DNA of 64,000 bases from an uncultured Calditrichaceae bacterium. GTDB taxonomy: Bacteria > Zhuqueibacterota > Zhuqueibacteria > Oceanimicrobiales > Oceanimicrobiaceae. The position numbers and the translations under genes are program-made. The notes under the pieces are model-generated. The model worked only from the letters and a program-made list of their open reading frames with translations, was not told the origin of the DNA and made no database searches. This document shows positions 3,427 through 55,476 of this stretch, piece after piece. Each line of letters starts with the position of its first letter. Position 1 is the stretch's first letter. The stretch covers positions 2,255-66,254 of the forward strand of contig CAYVXE010000011.1 in assembly GCA_964455375.1 (NCBI GenBank). Direction: 5' to 3'.

Positions 3427-3533
3427 TATATTATCCTAAGTTCATTTCATTAAGTATAACGCAGCGATAACCGGCAACTTTGAGTGTGCTGTAGCGAAGC
3501 GCAGGCATGAATTTGAATTAGACATTTCTGGGA

Positions 3534-3686
3534 CTATTCTACCGATGCTGGGATTTTCTGAGATGATTCGGCCTTGCTTATGAGATAATTTGTAAAATCA
3601 ATCGCTCTCGTCGGACTGTCATTTACAATCAATTCTTCAATTTCGCATAAGTTTTTTAATGCTTCTTGGGTCCAAACGAGATTCAC
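3534..3686 (-). pseudogene. Truncated ParE/RelE-family toxin remnant downstream of Phd antitoxin
   Basis: A GTG start overlaps the antitoxin stop (GTGA). It translates as VNLVWTQEALKNLCEIEELIVNDSPTRAIDFTNYLISKAESSQKIPASVE then stop, which is a ParE-like N-terminus of only 50 aa. Other frames further downstream read RIVPEM and LKVAGYRCVI, resembling the ParE GRIVPE and YRIIY motifs. This suggests frameshift decay. Confidence 0.45.
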
Positions 3687-3976
3687 TTTGAGCTTCGTTT
3701 GGCTCTATTTTTTGCAAGTTCCACTTTAAGCTTCTTTGTTGAATAGACTTTTCCGGAATCAGCGTCAGAAACTCCTCGATTGATTGAATCGACGAACAGT
3801 TTTTTGTAAACTAAGCTATCATATTCTGTTGGAGTCAGCAGGACACCTGCAGGTTTACCATTTTGAGTAATAATTAACGGCTGTCCAGTTTCACGAATAT
3901 TTTTTATCCACCTGGATATATTTGTTTTAAACTCCCCGATTGGTACAATATCATTTGCGATTCGGATATGTTTCAT
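3683..3976 (-). CDS. Type II antitoxin, Phd/YefM family
   Basis: 97 aa. The N-terminal 60 aa match the Phd/YefM fold pattern (ITQNGKPAGVLLTPTEYDSL). The C-terminus is basic. An AAGGAG Shine-Dalgarno sits 8 nt upstream. Confidence 0.8.
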   Translation of the reverse strand: MKHIRIANDIVPIGEFKTNISRWIKNIRETGQPLIITQNGKPAGVLLTPTEYDSLVYKKLFVDSINRGVSDADSGKVYSTKKLKVELAKNRAKRSSK

Positions 3977-3990
3977 TATAACGCTCCTTA

Positions 3991-4014
3991 TTTAGACCAT
4001 TATACAAGTCTAAA
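3991..4014 (-). promoter_or_regulatory. Putative autoregulatory operator and extended -10 promoter of the Phd antitoxin
   Basis: A 7-bp inverted repeat TTTAGAC-N10-GTCTAAA lies immediately upstream of the Shine-Dalgarno sequence. On the transcribed strand it contains TTGTATAATGG, an extended -10 (TGnTATAAT). Confidence 0.4.
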
Positions 4015-4275
4015 TATAACTCATAAACGGAAAATTTTCAAATACTTTTTTCAAACTCTGGCGAATAGTTAACCGGCAGCATGGGATTAGTTGCACTGCC
4101 GCTGCTACTCAATTTATAGTTAATTTATTGCAAATTTCTGAAAAATCGCCGCCGCCCCTGCTGTCGGGTTGAATGACACGTTAGCGACGCAGCAGCGGCA
4201 CGAACGCTGCCACCATCAATACAAGATTTTGAACGTTCACGATGTTTTTTACGCATTGCTGGTGGTAGAAGATTT

Positions 4276-4668
4276 TCATTTGCTTTCATGTACTAACATC
4301 CATTGTACTCCATATCTGTCTTTTAGCATACCAAAATTATCTTCAATCGGGAAGAGAGTTTTACCACCTTTAGACAACTTATTGAAAGCTTCTTCTTTTG
4401 TTTGCTTATCAGAAAAAACTACATATAAAGAGATATTACTTCCAATAATTACTTCATGGTTTGGTAAATCGTCAGATGCTTTAAAGTGAACGTCTCCTGC
4501 TCTTAGTTCTGAGTTGAAAATTCGATTTTGAGACTCTTTAGGAACATCAATTGGCGAATCTCCAAATGTTTGCATTAAAGTAATTTCTCCGTTTAGAGAT
4601 TCTTTGTAAAATTCCATTGCTTCTCTACAAGTTCCAGGGAAAACGATATAAGGTGTTAGAGATGTCAT
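4276..4668 (-). CDS. VOC-family protein, PhnB-like (glyoxalase/bleomycin-resistance fold)
   Basis: 130-aa ORF. Its pattern (YIVFPGTCREAMEFYKESLNGEI...GMLKDRYGVQWML) is typical of the PhnB/YjdN 3-demethylubiquinone-9 methyltransferase-like VOC domain. Confidence 0.6.
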   Translation of the reverse strand: MTSLTPYIVFPGTCREAMEFYKESLNGEITLMQTFGDSPIDVPKESQNRIFNSELRAGDVHFKASDDLPNHEVIIGSNISLYVVFSDKQTKEEAFNKLSKGGKTLFPIEDNFGMLKDRYGVQWMLVHESK

Positions 4669-7639: not shown

Positions 7640-8065
7640 AAACCATTCGACAGACATTTCAAAAAAAGAATTGAAGCCCTGGTTGAAATATATGTGGTGT
7701 ATTCCCCCAGCCGCCAATGCAGCTTGTCTGGGCGATGGAAGACATTCTTGAAGTTTACAGGCGACCTTATGACCCGAATAAACCTTTGGTCTGCATGGAT
7801 GAGACAACCAAGCAATCGACCAAAGGAATACGCTGTAGAATTCCTTCTAAACCTGGTAAATCTACTCGTGTTGATTATGATATATGAGCGCAATGGCGTC
7901 AGCAATCTGTCATGTTCTACGAGCCGTTTGGCAGCAAGCGCTATGTGTCGGTCACGGTGCGCCGAACCAAAGTTGATAGGGCCCATCAGATAAAAGAATT
8001 GTTGGATGTTCATTACACCAATGTAAAAAAAAAGTTGTTTTGGTAATGGATAATCTCAAATGCAA
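7640..8065 (+). mobile_element. IS630-family (Tc1/mariner DDE_3) transposase fragment, frameshifted
   Basis: The translation reads ILEVYRRPYDPNKPLVCMDE, DYDYERNGVSNL, FYEPFGSKRYVSVTVRRTKVD and LVMDNL in shifting frames. It corresponds to the central part of an IS630 transposase. N- and C-terminal parts are absent. Confidence 0.55.
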
Positions 8066-8654
8066 CTTTTTCGAATCTTATGTATTGTATAAAATAAACA
8101 CTTTGACTGACAAAAAAATACTAAACGAAATCAGAATAAATCCTCATAAATTTGAAATAGTTTATAATGCACATTATGAATCTATTTTTAATTACTGTTA
8201 CCGACGAACTAATAATTTTGATGCGTCATATGATATTACTGCTGAAGCATTCCTTAAAGCCTACTTAAATATCAGGAAATTTAGATGGAAAGGAATTCCT
8301 ATCAAGAGTTGGCTTTACCGAATTGCAACGAATGAACTAAAAATTTATTATCGATCTAAGCAATATAAGCCAAAACTTTTTAGTGAAATCCCCCATGATT
8401 CAAAGGATTTTACATCAATTGAGACCTTATTGATCGAAAAAAATAATGCACAACTTGAAATGGAAAAATATGAACAATTCCGTCAGGTTCAAAAAGCCAT
8501 AACGAAGTTACCGTTAAAATACCAGGAAGTGATTACTCTAAAATATTTTGAGAATCTAAAATTAAAGGAAATAAGTGTTGTTTTAAATAAAAAAGAAGGA
8601 ACAATAAAGTCGTTACTATCAAGGGCGATTGAAAAATTAAAAGGATCTTTATAG
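8040..8654 (+). CDS. ECF-type RNA polymerase sigma-70 factor (5' end chimeric with IS630 remnant)
   Basis: Region 2 reads ITAEAFLKAY...WLYRIATNE. Region 4 has a helix-turn-helix (KYQEVITLKYFENLKLKEISVVLNKKEGTIKSLLSRAIEKLK). The first roughly 8 codons (VMDNLKCN) read as a continuation of the IS630 ORF. The true start may lie between 8046 and about 8100. Confidence 0.7.
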   Translation: MVMDNLKCNFFESYVLYKINTLTDKKILNEIRINPHKFEIVYNAHYESIFNYCYRRTNNFDASYDITAEAFLKAYLNIRKFRWKGIPIKSWLYRIATNELKIYYRSKQYKPKLFSEIPHDSKDFTSIETLLIEKNNAQLEMEKYEQFRQVQKAITKLPLKYQEVITLKYFENLKLKEISVVLNKKEGTIKSLLSRAIEKLKGSL

Positions 8655-8687: not shown

Positions 8688-9170
8688 ATGATGAGAACAA
8701 AAAATAATCCAGGAGATAATTTTATGTTAAAAATGAAAGTCCCCACAGTTGATGTTTCTCACCACCAAAGTGAATTTAGAATTACGCTTTTTAACACAAA
8801 AAAATCTGCTGTTCTCGGTTTGATTTTTCTAATCCTCCCGTTACTCTTTTTGAGTGGTGTAGTTTTGAAACATTATTTACAGATTGATTTTGGAATATTT
8901 ACATCGGTTTATGAGTGGATTGGAAACATGGACCAGGAATATGGGGATGGTTCGCTGTTGAATTGGGTAATAAGATTTTTACTGTTATTTGGTCCCCTTC
9001 TTGCGATCGGAATAAATTTAATTTCCATTGTCTACATAAGACACGAACCAATATCAAAAGAGATTTTAATTTCAATAAAACTAAAATGGGTTAATCTGGT
9101 AATCATTTTTTCATGTTTTTTTATTTTTTTCATATTCTTTTCTTATTTAATTCTTGAAAATATAAATTAA
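8688..9170 (+). CDS. Membrane protein, candidate anti-sigma factor (no recognisable ZAS motif)
   Basis: 160-aa ORF with three predicted TM helices, lying 34 nt downstream of the ECF sigma gene. Very AT-rich. Confidence 0.4.
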   Translation: MMRTKNNPGDNFMLKMKVPTVDVSHHQSEFRITLFNTKKSAVLGLIFLILPLLFLSGVVLKHYLQIDFGIFTSVYEWIGNMDQEYGDGSLLNWVIRFLLLFGPLLAIGINLISIVYIRHEPISKEILISIKLKWVNLVIIFSCFFIFFIFFSYLILENIN

Positions 9171-9947: not shown

Positions 9948-12146
9948 ATGACATCCATCCTCCAAAAAACGAAATCATTTATCGATTCGCTATTCGACAA
10001 GAAATTCGATCCGGCCATCGTAAAACTCCCGCAAGTTAACGAAAACCATGAAAGCAACATTCCCGGCTTGTATATGATCGGTGAAGTTCGCGGCACCCCA
10101 CTGATCAAATTAGGCCTGAATCAGGGTAACAATTTAATTAACCAATTATTCGAGAATAAGCCATCAAATGGTTTACCCACCGATGTTCTTGATGTCCTCA
10201 TCGTCGGAGCCGGCGCCTCCGGAATCGGGGCAGCCAATCGCGCCCAGGAATTGGGGCTCAACTACATCGTCATTGAACAGGGACAACCGGCCAACCTCAT
10301 TCGCTCGTTCACCAAGGGCAAGCCGCTATTCATTGAACCGCTGGACGTCCCTTTGGAATCCACAATGTGGGCGGAGGAAAGCAGCAAGGAAGAGTTACTC
10401 AAACAATGGGACAAGCAAATTAAAGAGCGTGGCTTAAAAATCAACAGTTTCGAAGCTGTTTCAGACATTCAGCGTTCCTCCGACTATTTTAAGGTAACGA
10501 CCACCAAAGCAACCTACAAGACAAAATATGTTGTTTTAGCCATCGGTAAAGCCGGCAATCCACGCAAAGCCGGTGTGCCCGGCGAAAAGGAACATGCCGA
10601 AAAAATCGCTCACTTTTTAGCCGACCCGGATGAATTCAAAAACAAAAACATTTTGATTTATGGCGGCGGTGACGTTGCAGCAGAAGCAGCCATTACCCTT
10701 GCTGCAACCAATAACGTGACTTTGGTAACCATCGACCCGCAATTCATCTTTCCCAAAAAACGCAACGTGGACAAAATGCTCGATCTGCAAAAGCAGGAAA
10801 AACTTAACATTCATTTCAACAGCCATTTAAAGGAAGTGGGAAAGGATTTCGTAAAATTCGAAAAATACGGTCACGTTGAAGAAATAAAAAACAACCAGGT
10901 TTTTGAAATGATCGGCGCCGAACTGCCCATAAAATTCTTCAATAAGATTGGCATTAAAATGGAAGGCTCCTGGGATTTTAAGCGCTATCTGTTTCTAACG
11001 GCCATGTTTATCGTTTTCTATAGCGTCTACGCCATGAAAGCGCCGTGGTGGCCATTTAACCTGCAATTGTTCCAGGACTCCTCCGGACATATCATAAACG
11101 TAAAACAGTACCTCACCTTTAACTGGAATATTTTCGGATTCACCAAACACATTTCTCCGAGTTTCTGGTATGCAGCGCTGTACACTGCATTTATGACTTT
11201 TTTCGGGATGAAAGCCTACAAACGCTGGGGGGTCGGTTACAATGACAGCTACCAGAAAAAACGCTATATTTCACTCATCACCACGCAATGGACATTGGGA
11301 TTTCTCATTCCGGAATTTATTATGTGGTATGTGCACCATAAAGCCGGCCCCAGCCTTTTCTTAGGGAGTCCGGATTATTCCTGGAAAGCCTACGGGTTTG
11401 AATATGTCTGGCCGCTGCAGTTCCACCAATTCTTCTACGATATCAGTCTATTTTACATCGTCTGGGGATTACTGACGGCCTTCGTCATCATTCCGATCCT
11501 CTCCATTCATCACGGCAAACGTTACTGCACCTGGTTCTGTGGTTGCGGCGGGTTAGCTGAAACCTGGGGCGATCAATGGCGGCACAAAGCGCCAAAAGGC
11601 AGACGTTCCAAAGCCTGGGAATGGATGAACCGGGCAATCCTGATTTGGGCATTTGTCGCGACCATTTTAGTTGGCGGCAATATGCTTTTCGGAAAGCTGT
11701 ACTACAACGACATTTATCATTGGTTCGGATTTCTTTCACAGGCAGGGGAAGCATCGCGGGCGTGGTATTCCTACATTGCCGATTTCTGGCTCGTGGGCGT
11801 CATTCCCGTCACGCTCTATCCGTTTTTTGGCGGTAAAGTCTGGTGCCGTTACTGGTGCCCGCTGGCAAAATGGATGGAACTTTGGAGCCATCATCTCGGC
11901 AAGTTAGGCATCAACAGCAATGAAAAATGCATCACTTGCGGCGAATGCTCGCGGTTTTGCGAAGTCGGCATTGATGTCATGAGTTTTGCAAAAAATCAGC
12001 AGCGCTTTTCCAACAAAAATACGGCCTGCATTCACTGCGGTATCTGCATCACGGTTTGTCCCATGAGCGTGCTGTCGTTCCAGAAAAACGGGAAAATCAA
12101 AATAAACGAAGACGTTGCAGAGCGGGAGTACATTAAGGCTGCCTGA
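9948..12146 (+). CDS. FAD/NAD(P)-binding oxidoreductase fused to NapH/CcoG-like integral-membrane polyferredoxin
   Basis: The N-terminal part has two Rossmann motifs (LIVGAGASGIGAA and LIYGGGDVAAEAA). About 6 TM helices follow, containing C-x-W-x-C-P-like motifs (CTWFCGCGG and WCRYWCPLAKW). The C-terminus carries 2x CxxCxxCxxxCP 4Fe-4S motifs (CITCGECSRFCE and CIHCGICITVCP). Confidence 0.75.
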   Translation: MTSILQKTKSFIDSLFDKKFDPAIVKLPQVNENHESNIPGLYMIGEVRGTPLIKLGLNQGNNLINQLFENKPSNGLPTDVLDVLIVGAGASGIGAANRAQELGLNYIVIEQGQPANLIRSFTKGKPLFIEPLDVPLESTMWAEESSKEELLKQWDKQIKERGLKINSFEAVSDIQRSSDYFKVTTTKATYKTKYVVLAIGKAGNPRKAGVPGEKEHAEKIAHFLADPDEFKNKNILIYGGGDVAAEAAITLAATNNVTLVTIDPQFIFPKKRNVDKMLDLQKQEKLNIHFNSHLKEVGKDFVKFEKYGHVEEIKNNQVFEMIGAELPIKFFNKIGIKMEGSWDFKRYLFLTAMFIVFYSVYAMKAPWWPFNLQLFQDSSGHIINVKQYLTFNWNIFGFTKHISPSFWYAALYTAFMTFFGMKAYKRWGVGYNDSYQKKRYISLITTQWTLGFLIPEFIMWYVHHKAGPSLFLGSPDYSWKAYGFEYVWPLQFHQFFYDISLFYIVWGLLTAFVIIPILSIHHGKRYCTWFCGCGGLAETWGDQWRHKAPKGRRSKAWEWMNRAILIWAFVATILVGGNMLFGKLYYNDIYHWFGFLSQAGEASRAWYSYIADFWLVGVIPVTLYPFFGGKVWCRYWCPLAKWMELWSHHLGKLGINSNEKCITCGECSRFCEVGIDVMSFAKNQQRFSNKNTACIHCGICITVCPMSVLSFQKNGKIKINEDVAEREYIKAA

Positions 12147-20361: not shown

Positions 20362-20404
20362 TTGAATAAATTAAAAAAATAGGGAAAGCCATATGGCTTT
20401 CCCT
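20362..20404 (-). terminator. Rho-independent terminator of lipoprotein gene A
   Basis: The perfect stem AGGGAAAGCC-atat-GGCTTTCCCT is followed on the minus strand by a T-run (ATTTTTTTAATTTATT). It sits between convergent genes. Confidence 0.55.
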
Positions 20405-20450
20405 AACAAGGTCGATATGATTTATTGGAGGACGTTCCCCGACCTTGCGT

Positions 20451-21212
20451 TTACATTTTTTCTTCTACTTCTACATACTTTGCCAAATTTGCCTCGAAAG
20501 CAGCGAGCAAAGCTGTATTGGAAACATTGTCCACGATGATTTCTCCATTGCTAACCTGAGCGCTGCCAAAATCAACATTATTAAACATACCTGTCAAATC
20601 GAACGTCACAACCACAGGTACTGTTGAATTAGCTGCAACCGTAATACCACCGCCTGCAATGCGGATCTGAATTTCCTGAGCAAATGTTGATTTTATCGTC
20701 ATGGGAATGGCTGTTCCGTTAACAGGTATAAATTCCCCGCTGATAACAATCGTCTTGCCATCAAACGGTGGCGCGCTATTGAGCATGAACGTAAAGTCGA
20801 CTTTCTTAAATGTACCGGGATAAACTGCAACCGAATCAATAAAGGTTTCTCCATTGCTGATGTCGATACTAAAGGGCCCGGTGACGGCAATATCAGGCGC
20901 TTCTTGTTCATTGTCTGACCCACCGGAATCATTATCTTCGTGTTGCCCCTGCTGCTCGTTTTCAACGCCGGAATTCTCTTCGATGCGATATTTCTCGATA
21001 TTTAACAGGGCAAATTGCACATTTACAGAGCCGCCCGGTACCGGGATATCGCTCATACTGGAAGTTGAATGCAGTTTTGCTTTCGCTTTCATTAGAACCA
21101 CGCTGTTTTTCTGAAGAGATGTTGATGCAGATGGATTTTTGCCACAATACGTGACCAGAATGAGCAACATCAGGCTCAAAAGGCCAATTGAGTAATGCAT
21201 GATTCGTTTCAT
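20451..21212 (-). CDS. Lipoprotein, paralog A (DUF4382-like, uncertain)
   Basis: A signal peptide with lipobox (LVTYCGK) is followed by a Gln/Asp/Gly-rich linker and a beta-rich C-terminal domain. It is a paralog of 23431-24228, with about 75% amino-acid identity in the C-terminal half. Confidence 0.7.
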   Translation of the reverse strand: MKRIMHYSIGLLSLMLLILVTYCGKNPSASTSLQKNSVVLMKAKAKLHSTSSMSDIPVPGGSVNVQFALLNIEKYRIEENSGVENEQQGQHEDNDSGGSDNEQEAPDIAVTGPFSIDISNGETFIDSVAVYPGTFKKVDFTFMLNSAPPFDGKTIVISGEFIPVNGTAIPMTIKSTFAQEIQIRIAGGGITVAANSTVPVVVTFDLTGMFNNVDFGSAQVSNGEIIVDNVSNTALLAAFEANLAKYVEVEEKM

Positions 21213-21662
21213 GATAAACTCCTTTTGATTTGTTATTGTTAGCCAGAAATTGGCAGTTTAAACGTTACCAAGCTTATGCACTTAATTTTTTAATATTATC
21301 CATTTTATATTTATTCAATTTCTATGCCAGAATCATCAACTTATGTACTAATTATTAATTTATATACAGTTAAGACAATTCAGAAATAACCAATCCATTA
21401 TCGGAGTTTAAGAAAATGGCAAATATTTGACATAGGGCATGATATTATAATTTGTTTAATCGTATAATTATAATAAATTTAAAGGATGTCAAAAACTTGT
21501 TGCAGATACCGGCGAATTTTTTACACCTATCAGTGCACTAATTATTTTCTCACACAATATCGATTGTACCCGTGAGCGTTTCGGCAAGCGTACACCATTC
21601 CTGATCGGGAATGCCTCCATATATGCTTAAAATTCTGTATATGAGATTGTGTTTGTTCAATT

Positions 21663-22418
21663 CTAATCAATAATGAATTCCATTCTATCTCCTCTAAGGC
21701 TCCTGGGATCTGAAACTAAAACATTTTCCTGGAGCTTCTTCAGATTGTATAAATCATAAAAGTCGTTCGGATATAAACTGGGCACTTGTTGTAAACGGCT
21801 CGAACTATATACTCTAAATAATGGATGTTCCTCAATGTCGATCCCTTCCAACCGGCTCTTTTCTTGCTTAGTATAGTCAGTACTGCCCGATCCCCGTCTG
21901 TTCACTACCAAGAGATATTTTGCATTAATGTTGTTAAGAATTAACTCCAGTAAGAGACCAACTTCTTTGTTCAATAAATGACCGAAAACGTCTAAACACA
22001 ACACTAAATCTACCTTCGTTAACGATATCAATTTTTGTTCTTCGGATCTACAGATATCGAGACACTGAAAAGAAACATGTTGGTTCTGAAATTGCTTTTT
22101 GTTGTTCTTGATTAACTCACTCACAATGTCTACACCATGATAACGGTCTATAATAGGCATAATTTCTTTCATCCAATGAAAGTCGCCACAACCCAAATCC
22201 AAGATACTTGAAATATTATGATTTATAATAATATTTTTTATGATTTCGATCTTTTGATTTGCAAATTCACCTTCGGAGCCTGGTCCGCTCCTTGATAATT
22301 CACCTTCCCAACAATTATATCTATATACTCGTTCAAAATAGTCCCTAGGTTCAATAAACTGGTTCGCTTTTACCATCCAGCGAAACAGTCGTAACGGAAG
22401 AGTTGTAATATTTTTCAC
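21663..22418 (-). CDS. Class I SAM-dependent methyltransferase
   Basis: Motif I is ILDLGCGDFHW. Motif II-like VDLVLCLDVFGHL and the length (251 aa) fit a small-molecule or protein methyltransferase. Confidence 0.6.
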   Translation of the reverse strand: MKNITTLPLRLFRWMVKANQFIEPRDYFERVYRYNCWEGELSRSGPGSEGEFANQKIEIIKNIIINHNISSILDLGCGDFHWMKEIMPIIDRYHGVDIVSELIKNNKKQFQNQHVSFQCLDICRSEEQKLISLTKVDLVLCLDVFGHLLNKEVGLLLELILNNINAKYLLVVNRRGSGSTDYTKQEKSRLEGIDIEEHPLFRVYSSSRLQQVPSLYPNDFYDLYNLKKLQENVLVSDPRSLRGDRMEFIID

Positions 22419-22496
22419 GTTTGTTCTCCTTATATATTTTTAACTACCGCCTGCCGTTTTTGAGTTTAGTCAAAACAAAATTCCTCTTAGACAATT

Positions 22497-23168
22497 TTAG
22501 TTTTCCAATATCGCAATTGTTTGTCTTCCGCTAACCAATATTTCATAATTATCTTCTTGCAACGCAGGAATCAGTAATCGACCTTTTCCGCCACCGCCGA
22601 TATCCGTATCATCAATTGAAATGATATTTGTTTTATTTAGCTTGCTTTTTGCCGTTTCGTAGGCTATTAGATGCTTTTCCGCATAATCAATGCCAGGTTT
22701 TACATCCCATGCATCAAGAAAAAGAAGATCTATGGCTTCGTCGAATTCCTGAAGAAATTTGATGCCATCTGAACGAATGACTCTGGTATTTTCAAATTTT
22801 CTGCAACTCCACTTAGCTATTAAAACTGATTTCCAGCTAATATCGACAGATACAACATTGGCTGCTGAAGTACTCCAGTAATAGGTTGAATGGCCGTCAT
22901 TACAACAACTAGGATGAAATTCGGAAATGGGGTGAATTAATGGCTTTCGCATACACCCCAATTCGACTATCCTTCTACCTCCAATAGCATCAAAAAGCCG
23001 GAGTGTTGCTTCCAGATATTTTTGGGGTTTAGCTCTTTCGTAAAGTTGCTGGTCATGCGGTAAAACTATGTCCGAATAAACTTTCTCATAAAGATTGAGT
23101 GTTGATATTTTCCTTTTTATTTCCTCTTTGTTTTCCATTTTTCGCTCCAAATATTCCGTATCAACCAC
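22497..23168 (-). CDS. Class I SAM-dependent methyltransferase (O-methyltransferase family 3-like)
   Basis: IVELGC (motif I) and DLLFLDAWD (resembling DLVFIDADK of catechol-OMT-type enzymes) are present. 223 aa. Confidence 0.5.
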   Translation of the reverse strand: MVDTEYLERKMENKEEIKRKISTLNLYEKVYSDIVLPHDQQLYERAKPQKYLEATLRLFDAIGGRRIVELGCMRKPLIHPISEFHPSCCNDGHSTYYWSTSAANVVSVDISWKSVLIAKWSCRKFENTRVIRSDGIKFLQEFDEAIDLLFLDAWDVKPGIDYAEKHLIAYETAKSKLNKTNIISIDDTDIGGGGKGRLLIPALQEDNYEILVSGRQTIAILEN

Positions 23169-23330
23169 CTCGATTATTGTTTCTTAGAACCTCGAATTCA
23201 AATGAATTGTTTATAAAATGCTTGAAAGGTGGAAATCATAATTCTCAAAAACATTCCTTAAATGCGCCTGTTAGATAAGTGTCTGAAAACCTGTGACGAA
23301 GTAAAACTCTGAAAGATGACGTTAAAATAC

Positions 23331-23377
23331 TTTTCAAAACAAACCTATATGGGGGGAAGCACAGTGCCTCCCCCCCA
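23331..23377 (-). terminator. Putative terminator of lipoprotein gene B
   Basis: The stem GGGGGGAAGCAC-a-GTGCCTCCCCCC (one mismatch) is followed on the minus strand by a T-rich tract. Confidence 0.4.
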
Positions 23378-23430
23378 AGGTCAGGGTTCGTGGTTTCAGA
23401 AGTAGTGAAGGTTATACCGACCCTGAAATT

Positions 23431-24228
23431 TTACATTTTTTCTTCAACTTCTACATATTTTGTCAGATTGGTTTCGAAAACAGTGAGCAAAGCTGCATTG
23501 GAAACATTATCCACGATGATTTCACCATTCTTAACCTGAGCACTTCCAAAATCAACATTATTAAACATGCCTGCCAAATCAAACGTCACCACCACGGGTA
23601 CTATTGAATTATCTGCAACCGTAATGCCGCCTCCTGCAATGCGAGTCTGAATTTCCTTAGCAAATTCGGATTTTATTGTCACTGCAATTGCGGCACCATT
23701 TGTAGGTACAAATTCTCCGTTGATAATGATCGTCGAACCATTGAACGGAGGTGAGGTGTTGGGTATTAAAGTAAAATTAACCTTCTTGAATGTTCCCGGA
23801 TATGCAGCAACCGAATCAAGAAAAACTTCATTACTGCTAATATCGATGCTAAATGGTCCCGTAATTATGATATCAGGTGTGTCGTTTTCTGCGCCAGGAC
23901 TATCCTTTTTTTCTGACGATCCTTTATCATTGTCATTGGCACCCCCCTGTTGTTGTCCATCAAAACCGGTATTCTCTTCGATTCGAAATTTTTCAATGTT
24001 TAACAAAGCAGATTGAACGTTGAGAGAGCCACCAGGTACCGGAAAAGCACTCATACTTGAAGCTGAACTCAGCTTCGCTGCAGCCTTCATCACAATCATG
24101 CTGGTTTTTTGTAAAGACGTGAAGGATAAAGGTGGGGAAGATGTTGGACTCTTTTTTCCACAACTTACGACCAAAATGAGCAAACTTACGCTCACAAGTT
24201 GAACTGAATACTGCATGATTCGTTTCAT
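23431..24228 (-). CDS. Lipoprotein, paralog B
   Basis: A signal peptide with lipobox (LVVSCGK) is present. The architecture matches 20451-21212, and the two are about 80% identical over about 480 nt. Confidence 0.7.
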   Translation of the reverse strand: MKRIMQYSVQLVSVSLLILVVSCGKKSPTSSPPLSFTSLQKTSMIVMKAAAKLSSASSMSAFPVPGGSLNVQSALLNIEKFRIEENTGFDGQQQGGANDNDKGSSEKKDSPGAENDTPDIIITGPFSIDISSNEVFLDSVAAYPGTFKKVNFTLIPNTSPPFNGSTIIINGEFVPTNGAAIAVTIKSEFAKEIQTRIAGGGITVADNSIVPVVVTFDLAGMFNNVDFGSAQVKNGEIIVDNVSNAALLTVFETNLTKYVEVEEKM

Positions 24229-24760
24229 GATAAACTCCTTTCAAGTTATTAGTTTGAACTATTAGATAACTGATTGCCAGAATAATCACTCAAATAATAT
24301 GCCAAAATTTAAAAGCTATATTAAAAGAGCCATAATTTCTTATATTATAGATAGTTACTGCAGATAACGAACAACATTTATTATCTTAAATTTGCGGAAC
24401 TGACAAATATTTACCACTCACGGTATTGATAATGGCGTCATATTTATTTAATTATTAAGGACTTATAGTTTGTCAAAAATATGAGAGCAAATAGTTAACT
24501 TTTTGACGGAATACTTTATTAGTAGACTCTAAAAAATAAATATGTCTTTGTGGATGAGGAAGAAACTAATTTTGGGGAGAAGGATTCGTTAGGGCAACTT
24601 AGGGGTTATGCAGTTAGAAGGTCAATTCGTATTTGTTCATAGACTGCAATTACTAAAAAAACAAATATCACATACAGGTCATTTGTAGGTATGAGCGTAT
24701 TTTGCATGGTTGTGGAAAACTTGTCCAGCACCGTATTATTTATAATCAACATCCTGTTTC

Positions 24761-25681: not shown

Positions 25682-26413
25682 TCACTTTGGGCTTTTCGTC
25701 TTAAAATAATGTTCAAGTAAATCCACCAGATCGAGATCGACTTGAGCCGCAAAAGCCGCCATGTCAAGATTCTTTTTGGCCGCTGCCTGTTCCATGCCTT
25801 CGATCGCAGTGTTCATCACGTCATGTAGTCCCTTTTCTTTTACCTTGGCTTGAATAGCATCCCAGAAGCCGCGCGCTTCTGTCACGGTATTGGTCATGGC
25901 GCCAAAATCAGGGCTTTTCGCATTGGCGAGAACGTTGAGCTTAAAGCCTGCATAATCCAGGAGCGATACCTCAACGGGAACTATGAGGGTCGTTTTGTCA
26001 AGGGATGATATTAACAATCGATATGTTTCTGCCGCATGTAGCGCTACAGTCGTGTTATCCGAAGATGCAATCCCTTGCCGAATGGCTTGAAGGTGAGAAT
26101 CAAAGCTTGCCAGCATCTCGGAAGATAGCGTTTGCTTGATGTTTTTTACCTGGGAGCGGATTTTGTCATAAGTGGCCTGAATATTGTCCTGGTCTCCTGC
26201 CTCCGCAAAATCAATCAGATCTTCAAACGGAGATGCAGCGGCAAGAAGAGTTTCATTGTGGCCGCTGCTTTGCGGTGCATTCGAACCTGTGGATTCTTGC
26301 TGCTGTTGCTGCGACATCTCCGACACACTTTTAGAGCCACAGCTCAGCATAAATAAACTTGAGAAACTCAAAAAAATGAGCATGACAAAATAGATTTTTG
26401 ATTGACTTAACAT
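25682..26413 (-). CDS. Hypothetical lipoprotein (all-alpha, Gln-rich linker)
   Basis: A signal peptide plus LSCGSK lipobox is followed by a poly-Q stretch. I found no catalytic motif. Confidence 0.45.
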   Translation of the reverse strand: MLSQSKIYFVMLIFLSFSSLFMLSCGSKSVSEMSQQQQQESTGSNAPQSSGHNETLLAAASPFEDLIDFAEAGDQDNIQATYDKIRSQVKNIKQTLSSEMLASFDSHLQAIRQGIASSDNTTVALHAAETYRLLISSLDKTTLIVPVEVSLLDYAGFKLNVLANAKSPDFGAMTNTVTEARGFWDAIQAKVKEKGLHDVMNTAIEGMEQAAAKKNLDMAAFAAQVDLDLVDLLEHYFKTKSPK

Positions 26414-26616
26414 AATACACTCTCCTAATATTAGTAAACAAAAGTAACTGTCGCGATTCTTTAGAGAAATGATTCACAAAACACTTGCAGACTGGCATCT
26501 CCCGTATCAGAGCTGAAAACCCTGCTTAGAAATTTTCCATGGAAGACTGAAAAGCAAAACAGCCAGCACTATCTGCCACTTAGATGATTCAAACCTCTCA
26601 TGAGTCTCCCAATGCC

Positions 26617-27276
26617 CTATTGGAAGTCAAAAAACGACACATACGCAACGCCTTCTCCCCAATAAAGTGTGACTTTGTAGGTATAGCACATGTTTATGTT
26701 TTCGAAAAGAACGTCAATACCAGAAAATCTTCTCACTCTCAGGTCATAAATGCAATTATCTTCCCTGGGAGTAAACGAGATGTAAGCTTCATCACCATCA
26801 CTCAATACGACAGTCCCAAGAATATTTAAAGACCACAAATCAGTATTTGTATCTGAAACATACATTTCATCAAAAGTAAAACCTGTCTGATTCTCAATGA
26901 TGATATTCTGTTTTAGGTAAGCCGTATTATCTTCAAAATAAAGAGTGACGTTAAGCAAATGGCACAAATTGAGTTTATTGAATATGATGCTGTCTCCGTT
27001 TACCTTTACCGTTTTTAAGTCGTACTCGCAAACATTTTTGCTCTGTGGAGTAAACGTAAGAACCTCGTGCTCATCCTTTTTGAATACGCCAGTAACCAGG
27101 ATATTGTTGCTCCATTGCTTGCGGCCAGAGGGTGAAATTTGCACCGAGACAATATCCACTTTCGTTTTGTTCACAAGTTGAATAATTTTTTTGACGGTGG
27201 TTTCCTTTGCAAAAACACCGTTGCCTGCAAATAGTCCCAGGACAAAAATAGAGATGGAAAGAGTGAAGTGTCGCAT
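26617..27276 (-). CDS. Secreted protein with internally duplicated Cys-pair domain
   Basis: A signal peptide is followed by two homologous repeats of about 85 aa (NVCEYDLKTVKVNGDSIIFNKLNLCH...TLYF and NCIYDLRVRRFSGIDVLFENINMCY...TLYW). Confidence 0.45.
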   Translation of the reverse strand: MRHFTLSISIFVLGLFAGNGVFAKETTVKKIIQLVNKTKVDIVSVQISPSGRKQWSNNILVTGVFKKDEHEVLTFTPQSKNVCEYDLKTVKVNGDSIIFNKLNLCHLLNVTLYFEDNTAYLKQNIIIENQTGFTFDEMYVSDTNTDLWSLNILGTVVLSDGDEAYISFTPREDNCIYDLRVRRFSGIDVLFENINMCYTYKVTLYWGEGVAYVSFFDFQ

Positions 27277-35011: not shown

Positions 35012-35833
35012 TCATTCAACGAAACCATACTTAACCAACCTCAGGTCTTCGTCCCTGATCAACCCTACCCCCGGCGCATAAAATTTATATTCCTTGTTTT
35101 TTGGCTCCAGGTCAGACCTTTCCTCAACCTTTAAACAGTTCTTGAATTTACCGGCCGGTATATCAAATATTTCACCGCTGCTCATGATTTCCGCTTTGTC
35201 CATGGCAATATCCGGAGCCATTTCCTGATAATATCTCGCGCCCAACAAGACGGTTCCAGGCATCATTAATCCCGGTTTAGCATGATTCGAGTATGCATGC
35301 CAGGTACCATCGTGATTATCTATTTTTCCATTTTTGTAGATATCCACATCTTCACCAAAATAGAAAATATTATTGGTCCTCATACAAATCGCAAAGTAGT
35401 TTCGGGACACTTCCGTCAATTTACCTTCCACAGTCTCGCGTTCTTCCACAATTCTGGTTTCGACATTCCCAATTTTCTTTGTTTCATTTAAGACCGTAAT
35501 GGTGAGCTCCACCGTTTTATTATCTTCTTTGCCCTGCAAAGTTAACCGGTAGCCGGGTTCGAGAACAAAGTAGGTTGTCTTGCCAGTGGAAACAAAGTTG
35601 CACGTCTCCAGGCCAAAATTCATGGTCCACAATTTCTGCTTTTGTTTGTTTTGCGCACATACTGAGTTAAATGCAGGGCTTAAAACCATCAGCAAAGCAA
35701 TTACCAACACCTTGCCGACTGCACCTGTCCGTTGTTTGTTAGTCACAGCGAACCCTCTTTTTTTAAGTTTGCACATCAGCCGAATCAAAAAATATATTTT
35801 TGAGTGCTTACATGTTACTGGAATTTCGTTCAA
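35012..35833 (-). CDS. Secreted protein of unknown function, paralog of 57380-58120
   Basis: Shares with 57380-58120 the blocks YFGEDV/YFGEDS, G.WHA/G.WEAG, PG..M, F.NCLK..E.S.LEP and KY.PG.G. The real start may be an internal Met before the hydrophobic signal segment. Confidence 0.5.
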   Translation of the reverse strand: MNEIPVTCKHSKIYFLIRLMCKLKKRGFAVTNKQRTGAVGKVLVIALLMVLSPAFNSVCAQNKQKQKLWTMNFGLETCNFVSTGKTTYFVLEPGYRLTLQGKEDNKTVELTITVLNETKKIGNVETRIVEERETVEGKLTEVSRNYFAICMRTNNIFYFGEDVDIYKNGKIDNHDGTWHAYSNHAKPGLMMPGTVLLGARYYQEMAPDIAMDKAEIMSSGEIFDIPAGKFKNCLKVEERSDLEPKNKEYKFYAPGVGLIRDEDLRLVKYGFVE

Positions 35834-36027
35834 AGACTATGCCACAAAGAACATAAAACCTGAATGAAAACACGGTTCATTCGAGCCTGAAAAACAGGCA
35901 TGACTGTGATTCACTGGAAGGCAGCAATAGTCCTTGTCAGTTTTTTGACGATGCTACAGATAAAACATCGCGCCAAATCGTAAATTTACAATGAATTACA
36001 TCCCCGCCAGGTCAAGGCATGATTTCG

Positions 36028-38424
36028 TCAACTTTTTGACATTGGGGTAAATGTCTCAAAACTTTGTATGAGCGCTGGTAATACGACAATTGCGGTTAAA
36101 AATGTTGATAAAATACCAATAACTGCCAAATCACCGATAGAATTCAAACCGGGATGATGCGCCAGAATCAAGCCCGAGTAACCGACGATCGTTGTGGTCG
36201 TGGTCATGAGAATTGCCAGTCCGGTGTTTTTCAGAACAAAGTATAAGGAGCCCGGGCCTTCTTCCAAGTAGCGATGATAGATGTGCACACCATTGTCCAC
36301 GCCGATTCCAATGACACTCGGAATCACGACGATATTGAAAAGATTAAATTTCATTCCTGTTGCATACATCACCAGACCCATCCAGAGAATTCCCACGACC
36401 AGGGGAGATAATACCATCAAGGCTGATTTTATACTACGAAAGTCCAATAGGACAATAACAAAGACGACACAAATCGTTAACACCACAGCGATACGCCCTT
36501 CCCTTATCATAATGATAAGCATATCGGCGAGAATAATATTGGAACTGGATGCATGAAAAACCTTACCGTCTTTTGTCGTAATGGTTTCAACATCATTGCG
36601 AAAATCAATAGCGTTCCGGCCATTACTCAATGGTACACTGGGATAAATGAACACAAATTTGCCGATTTCGCCCTGTTTATTGATAAACTGACGTTTGTCT
36701 TTTTCCGGAAATTCCTCCCACGTAAAAGGTTGATTCACCTTCAAATATTGTTTCAGCTTATCGAGCTTTTTTTTGTCCTCGCCCTTAACAACGCCGTCGG
36801 CTTCAGTGTCAATCAGCTCTCTAATTTTTCGCATTTTAATCAATTTTTCAGGTTGGTCTTTTGGCACCAGGGAAAACACAGAACGCACTGCTTTTATGGT
36901 TGGGGAAACGGTATCTGTGGCGATGATATGTTTTACCGCCTCGACAATTTCGCTGACCTCTTCATCAGTGTTCGCGAGCACGACGGCCGGGGAATCGGAA
37001 AGCTTGAAAACCCCCCTGATTTTTTCCCGCACGATCGTCTGTTCTTCAGTGGTAGCGCGCAGGTTGGTAAAATCGTATTCAAAGCCCACCTGAGAAAGGC
37101 CGTAAATTGCAAGAAGTGTGAGCAAACCGGAAAGAAGTAAGATGGGCTTCGCATAACGAAACTGCTTACGTTTAAATTGCAATGTTTTACCCGGCACCGG
37201 TTTAACTTTTAGAATATGTAGCTTTTCAAACAGAGTAATAAACGCTGGTAAGACCACAACCATGGCGACCAGAGCGAAGAGCATGCCGACCCCGGCGATA
37301 AATCCCAAATCAGAAAACCCTTTGAAATCCATGAGCGTCAGGGAAAAAAAAGCGGCTGAGGTAGTCACAGCCGTGGTTGCAAGGGCCTTGCCGGTCTGAC
37401 AGACCAGCTTTTCAATGGATTGTTCAAAATCCAACCCGGCCCGGCGGCTCTCTGAATAACGGCCGAAAGCATGGATGCCGTAGTCGATGCCCATACCAAA
37501 GAGAATGACAAACAGGAATCCGGTAATCGTATTCAGCTCACCTATGACTCCGTAAGTCACGCCGAAAGTCCAGGCCAACGAGAAGAGTAGCGTCACGGTG
37601 ATCAAGATCGCACCAAGAAGCCGACGAAAATAGATGATGATCAACAGGAAAACACCACCAAATCCGTAAGCAGCCGTACCGATAATGTCTTTCTTCACGG
37701 ATTCGTATTCGACGAGACGATTTTCAAAATTTCCGCCGTAATAGATTTTCATGTCGGGCGCATATTTCTTATAGTTTGTTGCATCGATTATATCCTCTAC
37801 CTCATGGATCATCTTGCGAACGAAATTCAAATCTGTGTTTGATTTGGCAGGAAAGATTTTCATCACCAGAACCGTGCTGTCTGCATTGGTGTAGTACTCT
37901 TTGGGTTCCTTATCCCGGTATTTTGCTTCCCACTTGGCCAAATCATCGCCGGTATTATCAGCCGTACTCTCGCCAAAGAGATCTTCCACATAGAGAGGAT
38001 TCAGTTTCTGTTTTTCTGCATCGATTTTCTGTTTAATGGTTGTGTAGAGAGAATCTAATTCTGACGGTTCCAAAAACAACAGGGCATTTTTCTTGTAAAA
38101 TTGCACATCATTCTTGTGATCCACATAATTTATGAGCGGGCTGGCCAAAAGTCTGGGACTTAGCGTCTCGATGAATTTCCTGGCCGCGGAATAATCTTTC
38201 GTTTCAACAAGGATTTGCAATTGCCCAACACCGCCGACCTCTTCTTTGATACGATTTAAGGCTTTCACGCTCTCAAAGGTGTCCGGCAACAAAGCGGACA
38301 GATCGCTTTGCAGTGTCAACTTCGAAGCGTAGAATCCGCCAATAGCGGTCGCACTCAGGGCGACGAGCAAAATCGGAATATAGTATTTAGATATCAAATG
38401 ACATTTTTTGCGCAAATTCAACAT
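36028..38424 (-). CDS. MMPL-family RND-superfamily exporter (HpnN-like)
   Basis: 798 aa with two 6-TM bundles and two periplasmic domains, typical of MMPL/SSD transporters. Confidence 0.8.
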   Translation of the reverse strand: MLNLRKKCHLISKYYIPILLVALSATAIGGFYASKLTLQSDLSALLPDTFESVKALNRIKEEVGGVGQLQILVETKDYSAARKFIETLSPRLLASPLINYVDHKNDVQFYKKNALLFLEPSELDSLYTTIKQKIDAEKQKLNPLYVEDLFGESTADNTGDDLAKWEAKYRDKEPKEYYTNADSTVLVMKIFPAKSNTDLNFVRKMIHEVEDIIDATNYKKYAPDMKIYYGGNFENRLVEYESVKKDIIGTAAYGFGGVFLLIIIYFRRLLGAILITVTLLFSLAWTFGVTYGVIGELNTITGFLFVILFGMGIDYGIHAFGRYSESRRAGLDFEQSIEKLVCQTGKALATTAVTTSAAFFSLTLMDFKGFSDLGFIAGVGMLFALVAMVVVLPAFITLFEKLHILKVKPVPGKTLQFKRKQFRYAKPILLLSGLLTLLAIYGLSQVGFEYDFTNLRATTEEQTIVREKIRGVFKLSDSPAVVLANTDEEVSEIVEAVKHIIATDTVSPTIKAVRSVFSLVPKDQPEKLIKMRKIRELIDTEADGVVKGEDKKKLDKLKQYLKVNQPFTWEEFPEKDKRQFINKQGEIGKFVFIYPSVPLSNGRNAIDFRNDVETITTKDGKVFHASSSNIILADMLIIMIREGRIAVVLTICVVFVIVLLDFRSIKSALMVLSPLVVGILWMGLVMYATGMKFNLFNIVVIPSVIGIGVDNGVHIYHRYLEEGPGSLYFVLKNTGLAILMTTTTTIVGYSGLILAHHPGLNSIGDLAVIGILSTFLTAIVVLPALIQSFETFTPMSKS

Positions 38425-49731: not shown

Positions 49732-50604
49732 TTATTCAGGATAAGTAAATCTAATAGGCCTCGAATCATTGCTTGCTCCGAAAATTCCAAAGGCCCCTGC
49801 AATGTTTGAGTTGATAAATACGGGTTCAATAAAAGGATTCACTTTTGCACTTTTCTGGCGATCCAGGTCATCAAAGAATCGTGCGCTTGCAGCATCAAGA
49901 GTTTCCAGAAATACAAGTGCAGTATCCCCTACCTGATGCTGGAATGCGGGCTCAATGACGATTGTCAAAGGAGCCCCATCTGTGTTTTTGTCAAAAAAAA
50001 CAGAGCGGCCTATTTCTGAGGCGAAGTATGGTCCGTTAGCACAATTCGGAATATCTGTGTTTGACGACTGCAACGTTCGGTCCATTCGATAACGGTAGTA
50101 GTTCTTCTCATTCGGTAAATCACGAAACGAGACGACGACACCTTCATGCTCTCCATAAAGATCACTGAAGGCCGCGATATACGAAATTGAATCGATCTGT
50201 ACCGCGTCTATATTCATTTCAGTGTCCGCTTCATAGACATTGCCATTATATTCAATCTTTAGATGATAACTCTGTCCCTGCAAAACGGGAATTCTACCCT
50301 GGTAAAAAAATTCTTCCCGGCACTGATAGTAATTATACTTACTGACAGTGTGGAGCGTATCTATCCCGTTTACACTACTTATCGTGACCAGAGCGTCATT
50401 CACAAACAAGTCCAGGTTTTTTGTGAGAGAATCAAAAAAAGCGACTGATTTACCAAGATGCAGCGTCGGAACGTGGTTAGGTTGAAGAATACACTCTACT
50501 GCTAACTGACTTTGATAAGGCTTTAATGTGACATTTATGTTTTTTTCACAACTATTTAATATCAAGAATGCGAGCATGAGAGTTATTATTTTTATCTTTG
50601 TCAT
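49732..50604 (-). CDS. DUF4249-family lipoprotein
   Basis: A lipobox (ILNSCEK) is present. It lies 12 nt downstream of the TonB-dependent receptor at 50620-52920. Confidence 0.65.
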   Translation of the reverse strand: MTKIKIITLMLAFLILNSCEKNINVTLKPYQSQLAVECILQPNHVPTLHLGKSVAFFDSLTKNLDLFVNDALVTISSVNGIDTLHTVSKYNYYQCREEFFYQGRIPVLQGQSYHLKIEYNGNVYEADTEMNIDAVQIDSISYIAAFSDLYGEHEGVVVSFRDLPNEKNYYRYRMDRTLQSSNTDIPNCANGPYFASEIGRSVFFDKNTDGAPLTIVIEPAFQHQVGDTALVFLETLDAASARFFDDLDRQKSAKVNPFIEPVFINSNIAGAFGIFGASNDSRPIRFTYPE

Positions 50605-54285: not shown

Positions 54286-55476
54286 TTAGTAAATTATTGC
54301 CGTGAGCCCGAGACTAACCGTAAACGCACTTAAGCCATCGGAACGGTTATAACGTGCAAAACGCAAATCAACTCTCTTTAAACCCAAAGCCTTGTTTCCC
54401 AGGATGACCGACAGCGGATAGTAGCGCAGACCAAAACCGTATTTGTTGCTGTGGAATGCGGCAAGGTCATAGTCCGAGGTGTAATACGCATCATCGGGCT
54501 GGTGCTGCCCAAATTTCGCGAAGTATTTGGCCCTGCTTTGATGATGATAACGGTAGAACGGCTTGACGGAAATCGCCCGGCTTATTCGCAACGGTAACTC
54601 GACGCTGAAAGTGTTGGCGCTGATTTTGAAATCATCGCGAAAGTAGCGGTAGTAAAAACGCGTGATCACAAAGTCGTTCACGTAGTAATTAAAACGCAGC
54701 GCCACAGGCAGTTTGAACCGCGTGCTCGGTAGCCTTTCGATTCTCGGTAAAGATTCACCCGAAAAATAGACCCGGTGGAAAGGCGTGGCTAAATAGCCGG
54801 TTTGATAGACAACATCAGTGTTAATCGAGGCCTGTGCCCTTTTTGACAGCACCTGTGAGTAGGTAACCGAGAGATTATACGTTTTTCTACCTGTGGACGG
54901 GTAGCTTAGCTCTTCGTTGTGAATTTGCTGTTCGGGCGGACGTAATTCAAACGGCGTGATCAGATCGAGATTGTCCAGGAACGCCTGGCCGCTCACATTC
55001 AGTTCTCTGTTTCCATCCAGAGACGATTTTGCCCAATTGGCTCCAAATGAGAATGAGCGGTAATCGTACTCGGCGGAGGCTCCAACATTGATGCCGTAGG
55101 TGGTTGTGCTGTTCGGATTGGTGATGCGATAGCCGACGTTCACATGGGTGCGCGTGTCCCCACTAGAGGCGCCGGACACCACAGGATCGATATTGTCCGA
55201 GGACGCGGACGAGTAAACGTCGACTCCCAAGTTCAGGGAAAGTTGCTGGTTGCTTTTGATCGGCAGGTTGACAATAATCATTGGAGCTGAATCATGCAAT
55301 TGCTCCGTACCGTTGCCGCCAGTGACCGCCGAATGATCGCCAGCCTGCCTATAATAGTCCAGAAGAAAGTTGACCTCAATCGGATGGCGCTTTCCTGAAT
55401 TATTCTCTTGAGAATAGAGACCTGTGGCCCCGGTAAAGAACAGAACTAAAACCAGAAGTCTGCTGATTAATTGCAT
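54286..55476 (-). CDS. DUF3570-family putative outer-membrane beta-barrel protein
   Basis: A signal peptide is followed by Tyr/Arg-rich amphipathic beta-strands. It is the last gene of the ApbE operon and overlaps DUF4266 by 10 nt. Confidence 0.65.
   Translation of the reverse strand: MQLISRLLVLVLFFTGATGLYSQENNSGKRHPIEVNFLLDYYRQAGDHSAVTGGNGTEQLHDSAPMIIVNLPIKSNQQLSLNLGVDVYSSASSDNIDPVVSGASSGDTRTHVNVGYRITNPNSTTTYGINVGASAEYDYRSFSFGANWAKSSLDGNRELNVSGQAFLDNLDLITPFELRPPEQQIHNEELSYPSTGRKTYNLSVTYSQVLSKRAQASINTDVVYQTGYLATPFHRVYFSGESLPRIERLPSTRFKLPVALRFNYYVNDFVITRFYYRYFRDDFKISANTFSVELPLRISRAISVKPFYRYHHQSRAKYFAKFGQHQPDDAYYTSDYDLAAFHSNKYGFGLRYYPLSVILGNKALGLKRVDLRFARYNRSDGLSAFTVSLGLTAIIY

Follow-up and report, generated by a model that had tools for sequence, protein, structure and literature searches.

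In a 64-kb stretch of DNA from an uncultured Calditrichaceae bacterium (contig CAYVXE010000011.1; the whole stretch is referred to here as the window), two lipoprotein genes, lipoA and lipoB, bracket two genes for S-adenosylmethionine (SAM)-dependent methyltransferases, MT1 and MT2. On balance, we favour reading the lipoproteins as old, σ54-regulated envelope paralogs, and the methyltransferases as genes unlinked to them that a lineage-specific rearrangement brought into this position. The original prediction, made from the sequence of the window, had instead presented the four genes as an acquired AT-rich island and a possible new system. All four open reading frames (ORFs) were recovered where it had placed them, on the minus strand (Table 1). 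Independent assemblies of this organism keep them in the same order, as does a sister strain, which rules out an assembly artefact.

An old, lineage-specific pair of lipoprotein paralogs

The paralogy of lipoA and lipoB is clear, as had been proposed: their products share 68% identity (E = 2e-122). Nucleotide identity is 75% across all aligned codons and 78% across the last 480 nt, close to the 80% first estimated for that segment. By the Nei-Gojobori method, synonymous divergence (dS) is 0.89 overall and the ratio of nonsynonymous to synonymous divergence (dN/dS) is 0.21; both copies are therefore under purifying selection. Along the genes, dS is 1.20 in the first 183 codons versus 0.43 in the last 70 codons, such that a 3' tract (20451-20660 and 23431-23640) shows synonymous divergence about three times lower. 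Protein-level constraint cannot explain this drop, and the pattern thus points to a probable later gene conversion, confined to the 3' end and overlaid on an older duplication. Each of the two genes has the other as its nearest relative, in the front part of the alignment (71% identity, versus at most 65% to others) as well as in its tail (87%), so the duplication is lineage-specific, and it is old. A six-frame search with the family hidden Markov model, directed at the 'canonical' site of the family (58120-58634), found no third or remnant copy in the window. Elsewhere, a Prolixibacteraceae locus (L028) also holds two family genes, at 2526-3128 and 10070-10741, approximately 7 kb apart; an extracytoplasmic function (ECF) σ/anti-σ pair lies ahead of one of them, and a receptor and DUF4249 pair comes after the other. 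This second copy is an independent duplication.

Both proteins begin with a hydrophobic h-region followed by a lipobox, VTYC/GKN in lipoA and VVSC/GKK in lipoB. All 44 homologs in the alignment have the lipobox cysteine (Cys23 of lipoA), most often in the form [SG][GS]C, and the call was made from this alignment and from the two sequences themselves. The Gly/Asp/Gln/Asn-rich spacer and the identical KYVEVEEKM ending described in the original prediction are indeed common to the two proteins. With the 44-sequence alignment as input, AlphaFold2 predicts a confident β-sandwich for lipoA (predicted local distance difference test score, pLDDT, 83; predicted template modelling score 0.75). Apart from the signal region at the N terminus and the final four residues, the pLDDT drops below 50 only at residues 83-101, within the spacer. 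This spacer forms an acidic disordered loop, spanning residues 83-106 of lipoA. Across the family the loop measures 17-61 residues, consists to 71% of Gly, Asp, Glu, Asn and Gln, and carries a mean net charge of -8.6; its start is semi-conserved (NDVEQQG-H-NDGDQGG-DNE) and it is bounded by the invariant motifs IEENSG and D..GP.

The closest Pfam resemblance is to DUF4382 (PF14321), whose members likewise combine an N-terminal lipoprotein signal with an all-β fold. Residues 52-211 of lipoA align to positions 7-124 of the 136-position profile with the loop as an insertion, at 16.8 bits, below the 25-bit gathering cutoff, and lipoB gives no match. Weak matches recur in 10 of the 44 homologs (best E = 4.1e-5), with every individually scanned member below 25 bits. 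The present family differs from DUF4382 in the inserted acidic loop of 17-61 residues and in these sub-threshold scores. MbnP (PF20243) was considered and rejected, given short matches of 13-18 bits in some homologs against a 27-bit cutoff; neighbour clustering revealed no MbnH-like partner among the conserved neighbours. Foldseek found no solved structure related by fold to the lipoprotein model, the family profile had no meaningful match among PDB sequences, and the literature on DUF4382, which a single paper mentions, and on sigma-54 in Calditrichota yielded nothing of use. A word-indexed search placed the family at 74 clusters, and a full profile search retrieved 70 representatives (of 50%-identity clusters) at E≤1e-30 and 936 at E≤1e-3. 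The family is small, unnamed, uncharacterised and outside the coverage of Pfam. In one Planctomycetota metagenome-assembled genome (L022), the family match (3556-4365) sits at the end of a 979-codon open frame (1438-4374), which is either a fusion protein or an artefact of simple ORF calling.

σ54-type promoters and putative activator palindromes

The regions upstream of lipoA and lipoB are long and AT-rich, as first described, with both spacers at approximately 0.30 GC. Their nucleotide alignment reveals a conserved island in otherwise diverged DNA. Each gene is preceded by a σ54-type promoter motif and, further upstream, by a palindrome that may serve as an upstream activator sequence (UAS) (Table 1); promoters and palindromes are identical in the sister strain. 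Across 903 kb, comprising both strands of the window and the related loci, the motif TGGCAY-N5-TTGM occurs 11 times, 4 of them inside ORFs. The other seven are intergenic, and every one is correctly oriented upstream of a gene, 11-269 nt from the start codon. The genes concerned are lipoA, lipoB, the 57380-58120 lipoprotein gene, the ORF at 35012-35833, the family genes of the relatives L004 (site at 2267) and L007 (2217), and a small gene that precedes the family gene in L005 (7813). All four window promoters have a palindrome resembling GTCAA-N4-TTGAC, often in two copies, at 100-196 nt on their upstream side, and in L004, L005 and L007 it stands about 153 nt ahead of the promoter; upstream activator sites are expected at about 80-200 nt. 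Under a strict definition, the combined promoter and palindrome architecture was seen 3 times in the window, versus 0 in 300 simulations on first-order Markov versions of it; allowing the two-mismatch palindrome of lipoB brings the observed count to 4. Given this architecture, the AT-rich upstream regions are better explained as enhancer-type control regions of σ54 promoters than as island DNA.

Promoters recognized by σ54 carry GG at -24 and GC at -12, exactly 10 nt apart, and the GC is near-universal. The window sites possess the -24 TGGCA and the exact GG-N10 spacing, with GA rather than GC as the -12 dinucleotide. This form (TGGCAY-N5-TTGA) may be a lineage-specific promoter variant; since it occurs in all seven sites, recognition by σ54 is not certain. 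A candidate activator is encoded within the window: the response regulator at 60691-62115 matches Sigma54_activat at E = 1e-67 and contains the σ54-contact motif GAFTGA. In an independent relative, L040, the gene immediately ahead of the lipoprotein gene encodes a CHASE2-σ54 activator, with TGGTAT-N5-TTGCA between the two. The ensemble resembles NtrC-type σ54 regulons (e.g. glnAp2-type) in its -24 element, its GG-N10 spacing, its palindromes 100-200 nt upstream and its GAFTGA activator with partner kinase. It differs from them in the -12 GA and in its apparent targets, which would be lipoproteins of the envelope and proteins of the outer membrane instead of nitrogen metabolism. We therefore propose, as a conditional model, that lipoA and lipoB would each form a transcription unit with its own σ54-type promoter and upstream activator palindrome, and that both would most likely belong to the regulon of the NtrC-type two-component system at 60.7-64.0 kb. 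That σ54 is required, and that this activator is the one involved, is our inference, and the -12 GA is the main caveat.

At the other end of the units, the original prediction of a hairpin terminator for each lipoprotein gene stands in part: a strong hairpin follows both genes, and a canonical terminator with a U-tract is present at lipoA alone. In addition to these terminal hairpins, a second stem occupies a conserved position directly past the stop codon of each gene (AAGGTCG...CGACCTT at 20406-20448 and CAGGGT...ACCCTG at 23382-23425, minus strand).

The other two window promoters stand ahead of genes that are related to one another. The products of 57380-58120 and 35012-35833 are paralogous, with a common motif YFGED...W.A...AKPG, and each gene lies behind a σ54-type promoter and two palindromes. 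The former product possesses a lipobox and the latter a weak DUF3108-like match. The 57380-58120 gene occupies the position held by the lipoprotein family in the relatives L004 and L007. Homology between its product and the small gene preceding the L005 lipoprotein was considered, and none was found.

Conserved neighbours and the intervening methyltransferases

To contextualize the lipoproteins, all neighbours in 32 related loci, which together contain 33 family genes, were clustered without prior assumptions and annotated by Pfam. These loci derive from Calditrichaceae, Ignavibacteria, Melioribacteraceae, Bacteroidales, Prolixibacteraceae and others, with 2-10 kb of flank available. The family has a conserved neighbourhood, co-directional with the lipoprotein gene. 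In the closest relatives the upstream genes encode a sensor kinase, a σ54-dependent response regulator, a 304-residue protein and a porin-like protein; in Bacteroidales they encode a PepSY-like protein, an ECF σ factor, and an anti-σ factor with an outer-membrane β-barrel. The immediate upstream neighbour is an ECF σ/anti-σ gene in 15/33 cases; in 6/33 it is a member of the σ54 block, encoding either the histidine kinase or the porin-like protein. Immediately downstream lies a TonB-dependent receptor (12/33) or a PagL-like outer-membrane protein (6/33). The receptor has a CarboxypepD_reg N-terminal domain and is accompanied by a DUF4249 lipoprotein, which is found within 6 kb in 10/33 cases; same-strand receptor adjacency extends across Calditrichaceae, Bacteroidales and Prolixibacteraceae. 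PAP2 phosphatase, PMT_2 (ArnT-like), GT9 heptosyltransferase and RND efflux genes are also frequent nearby. In relatives, the single-copy lipoprotein gene thus usually lies between a regulator pair (σ54 two-component or ECF σ/anti-σ) and either a receptor/DUF4249 pair or a PagL-like gene.

The window contains the same partner genes, 26-40 kb from lipoA and lipoB (Table 1), and orthologs of its 60691-62115 activator adjoin the lipoprotein gene in relatives. Lipoproteins of the DUF4249 family have been proposed, from AlphaFold-Multimer models and cofitness, to act as 'lids' of adjacent TonB-dependent transporters, alongside DUF4876, DUF4625, BtuG and XusB as accessory lids of transporters outside the SusC type (Price et al., bioRxiv 10.1101/2023.03.17.533168). 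The present family resembles these lids in that its gene lies directly upstream of a receptor, on the same strand, in 12/33 cases and across phyla. It differs in that those loci already have their DUF4249 lid, which would make the lipoprotein a third component, and in that the two copies in the window adjoin no receptor. Genomic context and composition suggest a role as an accessory part of an inducible outer-membrane transport or remodelling module, in which the acidic loop could bind cations or a cationic ligand. In the window, the 57380-58120 lipoprotein gene is followed by a block (54286-57383) encoding a DUF3570 outer-membrane protein, an ApbE flavin transferase and a thioredoxin-like protein, then by a GT4 glycosyltransferase gene and the receptor and DUF4249 genes; this series may be one long σ54-dependent operon.

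The two methyltransferases have a different genomic association. MT1 exceeds the Pfam cutoffs of Methyltransf_25 (32.0 bits, cutoff 27), Methyltransf_12 (31.8, cutoff 30), Methyltransf_11 (29.3, cutoff 21.2) and Methyltransf_23, and its motif I reads LDLGCGDF. The best Pfam match of MT2, to Methyltransf_31, is sub-threshold (17.2 bits vs a 27-bit cutoff); many of its homologs carry precomputed PF13578 or PF13847 matches and are named 'class I SAM-dependent methyltransferase' in their source. Gene callers start MT2 at the ATG at 23138, giving 213 residues. The two enzymes are unrelated to each other (E = 3.7), as had been stated. PDB searches with both were uninformative, yielding a Hen1-type SAM core for MT1 alone (E≈5e-4). 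Their closest relatives, at 57-69% identity, come from other phyla. We sampled the contexts of four homologs per methyltransferase, and all eight were polysaccharide, O-antigen or lipopolysaccharide (LPS) clusters: glycosyltransferase/O-antigen/capsule clusters for MT1 (4/4) and LPS/O-antigen-type clusters for MT2 (4/4; GT9, Wzy_C, Methyltransf_21, DUF6492 and Acyl_transf_3). Together, these clusters contain GT2/GT4/GT9 glycosyltransferases, Wzy_C, Wzt_C, Polysacc_synt, Methyltransf_21, Acyl_transf_3 and DUF6492. MT1 and MT2 thereby resemble the sugar methyltransferases of O-antigen, LPS and capsule synthesis, with homologs of 55-69% identity inside glycan clusters. Unlike those, they are detached from such a cluster, the nearest GT4 genes lying at 40.0-41.2 and 53.0-54.2 kb, and neither has a solved relative beyond the SAM-binding core. 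A role in anti-phage defence was rejected: the PADLOC match to MADS mad2 involves the SAM-binding core alone (21.8 and 30.3 bits; positions 290-397 of the 492-position profile), and the lipoproteins have no PADLOC match. From these sequences and contexts, MT1 and MT2 are most simply read as cytoplasmic sugar- or LPS-type methyltransferases, not conserved partners of the lipoproteins, that ended up between the two copies in this lineage only, probably by horizontal acquisition.

The original prediction had treated the four genes as a cassette; on such a view, the targets of the methyltransferases might be the lipoproteins or their ligand, or else a small molecule or surface product common to the set. 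The linkage that such a cassette would entail is absent from relatives: homologs of MT1 or MT2 occur near the lipoprotein gene in 0/32 related loci (tblastn, E≤1e-3, within the available flank), the lipoprotein occurs in 0/8 of the methyltransferase contexts, and MT1 and MT2 homologs do not co-occur in any sampled locus. The 'system' reading is therefore not supported, as the lipoprotein family is unlinked to methyltransferases elsewhere, and the lipoprotein-methyltransferase-methyltransferase-lipoprotein order is a lineage-specific juxtaposition. Motif scans of the window detected no σ54-type promoter or palindrome ahead of either methyltransferase gene, and a σ70-like sequence, a consensus match only, stands directly upstream of MT2. 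Unlike the lipoproteins, with their signal and lipobox, MT1 and MT2 show no hydrophobic signal stretch at the N terminus of their translations, which were read without a signal-peptide predictor. A single cassette would fit the common strand of the four genes and the order kept in the sister strain. It would also suit the possibility that lipoB, MT2 and MT1 form one transcript, since the lipoB hairpin has no U-tract and read-through is possible, and the overlap in theme between the LPS/O-antigen clusters of the methyltransferase homologs and the PagL-like, PAP2, PMT_2 and GT9 neighbours of the lipoprotein. We nevertheless regard one functional cassette as very unlikely. Given the possible lipoB read-through and the loose outer-membrane association of both gene sets, a functional tie of some kind between lipoproteins and methyltransferases retains a small probability.

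Table 1. Genes, putative regulatory elements and partner genes discussed in the text, in window coordinates.
Feature	Position	Strand	Remarks
lipoA, lipoprotein, 253 aa	20451-21212	minus	ORF
lipoA intrinsic terminator	20380-20405	minus	11-bp stem then T-run; z=-5.9 for the 94-nt region vs shuffles
MT1, class-I SAM-dependent methyltransferase, 251 aa	21663-22418	minus	Pfam; 67 homologs
MT2, divergent class-I methyltransferase, Methyltransf_24/31-like	22497-23168	minus	327 homologs
Hairpin 3' of lipoB	23351-23375	minus	11-bp GC-rich stem, U-tract absent; z=-3.4 vs shuffles
lipoB, lipoA paralog, 265 aa	23431-24228	minus	ORF
σ54-type promoter of lipoA, TGGCATAGAAATTGA	21315-21329	minus	GG-N10-GA; motif 5' base 117 nt upstream of lipoA ATG
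Putative UAS palindrome, TGTCAAATATTTGCCA	21417-21432	minus	~100 nt upstream of lipoA -24 element
Further half-site, TTTTTGACA	about 21487-21495		upstream of lipoA
σ54-type promoter of lipoB, TGGCATATTATTTGA	24290-24304	minus	motif 5' base 76 nt upstream of lipoB ATG
Putative UAS palindrome, TGGTAAATATTTGTCA	24401-24416	minus	~105 nt upstream of lipoB -24 element
Second putative UAS site, GTCAAAAATATGAG	24472-24485		upstream of lipoB
Third σ54-type promoter, TGGCATAGTTTTTGA	58375-58389	minus	palindromes 58572-58585 and 58479-58492; upstream of lipoprotein gene 57380-58120
Fourth σ54-type promoter, TGGCATAGTCTTTGA	35830-35844	minus	palindromes 36027-36040 and 35936-35949; upstream of ORF 35012-35833
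Sensor histidine kinase (HAMP-PAS-HisKA-HATPase)	62112-63995	minus	partner of activator
NtrC-type σ54 activator (receiver, Sigma54_activat, HTH_8)	60691-62115	minus	GAFTGA at residue 231
Unknown protein of regulator block	59780-60694
Porin-like protein of regulator block	58634-59770
TonB-dependent receptor	50620-52920	minus
DUF4249 lipoprotein	49732-50604	minus

Base composition, competing readings and significance

The AT-richness of the segment had been taken as a sign of acquisition. Compared with the rest of the window, the segment is only mildly atypical. Relative to the 44 large genes of the window, lipoA (GC 0.436, z=0.03) is average and lipoB slightly low (0.404, z=-0.58), and neither lipoprotein gene is foreign by this measure; MT1 (0.360, z=-1.40) and MT2 (0.379, z=-1.03) are lower, with z-scores of -1.0 and -1.6 for GC at third codon positions (GC3). 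Horizontal acquisition of the entire 20.4-24.3 kb segment, as a genomic island, would accord with a GC of 0.35-0.385 over 21-25 kb against 0.43 for the window, with the GC3 of the methyltransferase genes and the origin of their best relatives in other phyla, and with a site beside thiO/cydAB that no relative shares. Much of the GC dip, however, comes from regulatory spacers of approximately 1.2 kb in total (about 0.30 GC upstream of lipoA and lipoB, 0.38 between lipoB and MT2), and the tetranucleotide distance over 21-25 kb reaches only z=1.8, fourth among 61 segments, with others deviating more. Neither an Rfam family nor a tRNA was detected in the window, and a repeat scan detected no flanking direct repeats, element-like inverted repeats or insertion scars, only the paralogs and regulatory blocks. 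The segment also contains no ORF the size of an integrase or transposase (small ORFs were not screened), while the promoter and UAS motifs of its lipoprotein genes are those of other host genes and of related species. It thus lacks the atypical composition combined with mobility signatures by which genomic islands are recognized, and an island of this extent is very improbable. What survives of the original claim is the mild AT-richness and the possibility that the methyltransferases were acquired, which their other-phyla relatives (57-69% identity) and low GC3 suggest; acquisition of the methyltransferase pair alone is plausible, at roughly even chances.

The most AT-rich genes of the window lie elsewhere, namely an ECF-type σ factor gene (8040-8654) and the gene that follows it (8688-9170), which have a GC of 0.285-0.294 (z about -2.7) and are far more atypical than the flagged segment. 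Adjoining that segment, between an RND-adjacent gene and a VTT-domain gene, is an indel polymorphism: two unannotated genes, 25682-26413 and 26617-27276, are absent from the sister strain (window 25682-27276 vs 4011-5726 of L042).

Several observations weigh against our reading of the pair as old σ54-regulated paralogs with unlinked methyltransferases between them. The -12 dinucleotide is GA in all seven sites, and the number of promoter motifs alone (4, vs a simulated mean of 0.87 and maximum of 4) is not decisive without the palindromes and positioning. No rpoN gene was seen in the window, which covers part of the genome. lipoA and lipoB adjoin no TonB-dependent receptor here, and their functional link to such receptors is by family association only. 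Neither Foldseek nor the PDB search found the lipoprotein a relative of known function, and its likenesses to DUF4382 and MbnP are sub-threshold. Co-transcription of MT2 and MT1 with lipoB could follow from the missing U-tract, and the LPS/glycan character common to the lipoprotein neighbours and the methyltransferase contexts would allow a loose functional tie. The promoter caveats would also suit a different interpretation, that TGGCAT-N5-TTGA and its palindromes are bound by some other regulator or make up a promoter class peculiar to this lineage, for example an ECF-type one, particularly as σ70-like hexamers also occur in these AT-rich spacers. This is unlikely in view of the exact GG-N10-G spacing, the orientation and the 11-269 nt distances of the sites, and palindromes at enhancer-like distances. 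Likewise, σ54 activators are conserved neighbours in L003, L005, L008, L012, L013 and others, and L040 combines its CHASE2 activator with a canonical TTGC at -12.

A more ambitious variant holds that the β-sandwich lipoprotein is a so far undescribed third component of inducible receptor and DUF4249 modules, that it is turned on by a σ54 two-component system of its own acting at the unusual GG-N10-GA promoter, and that in this lineage lipoB is co-transcribed with the methyltransferases; we consider it quite unlikely. If it were true, the conserved acidic Gly/Asp/Asn loop would capture a cation or cationic ligand or sense perturbation of the outer membrane, and methylation of surface glycans would be coupled to the same envelope response.

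Under the σ54-regulated, lineage-specific reading that we favour, the gene order is a juxtaposition and should not be pursued as a new system. The motifs instead outline a small, testable σ54 regulon, marked by a conserved palindrome for its activator and by the non-canonical GA at -12, in an uncultured and little-studied lineage related to Calditrichaceae. The lipoprotein family itself, with its clear genomic signature, is a candidate for work on the accessory lipoproteins of outer-membrane transporters.

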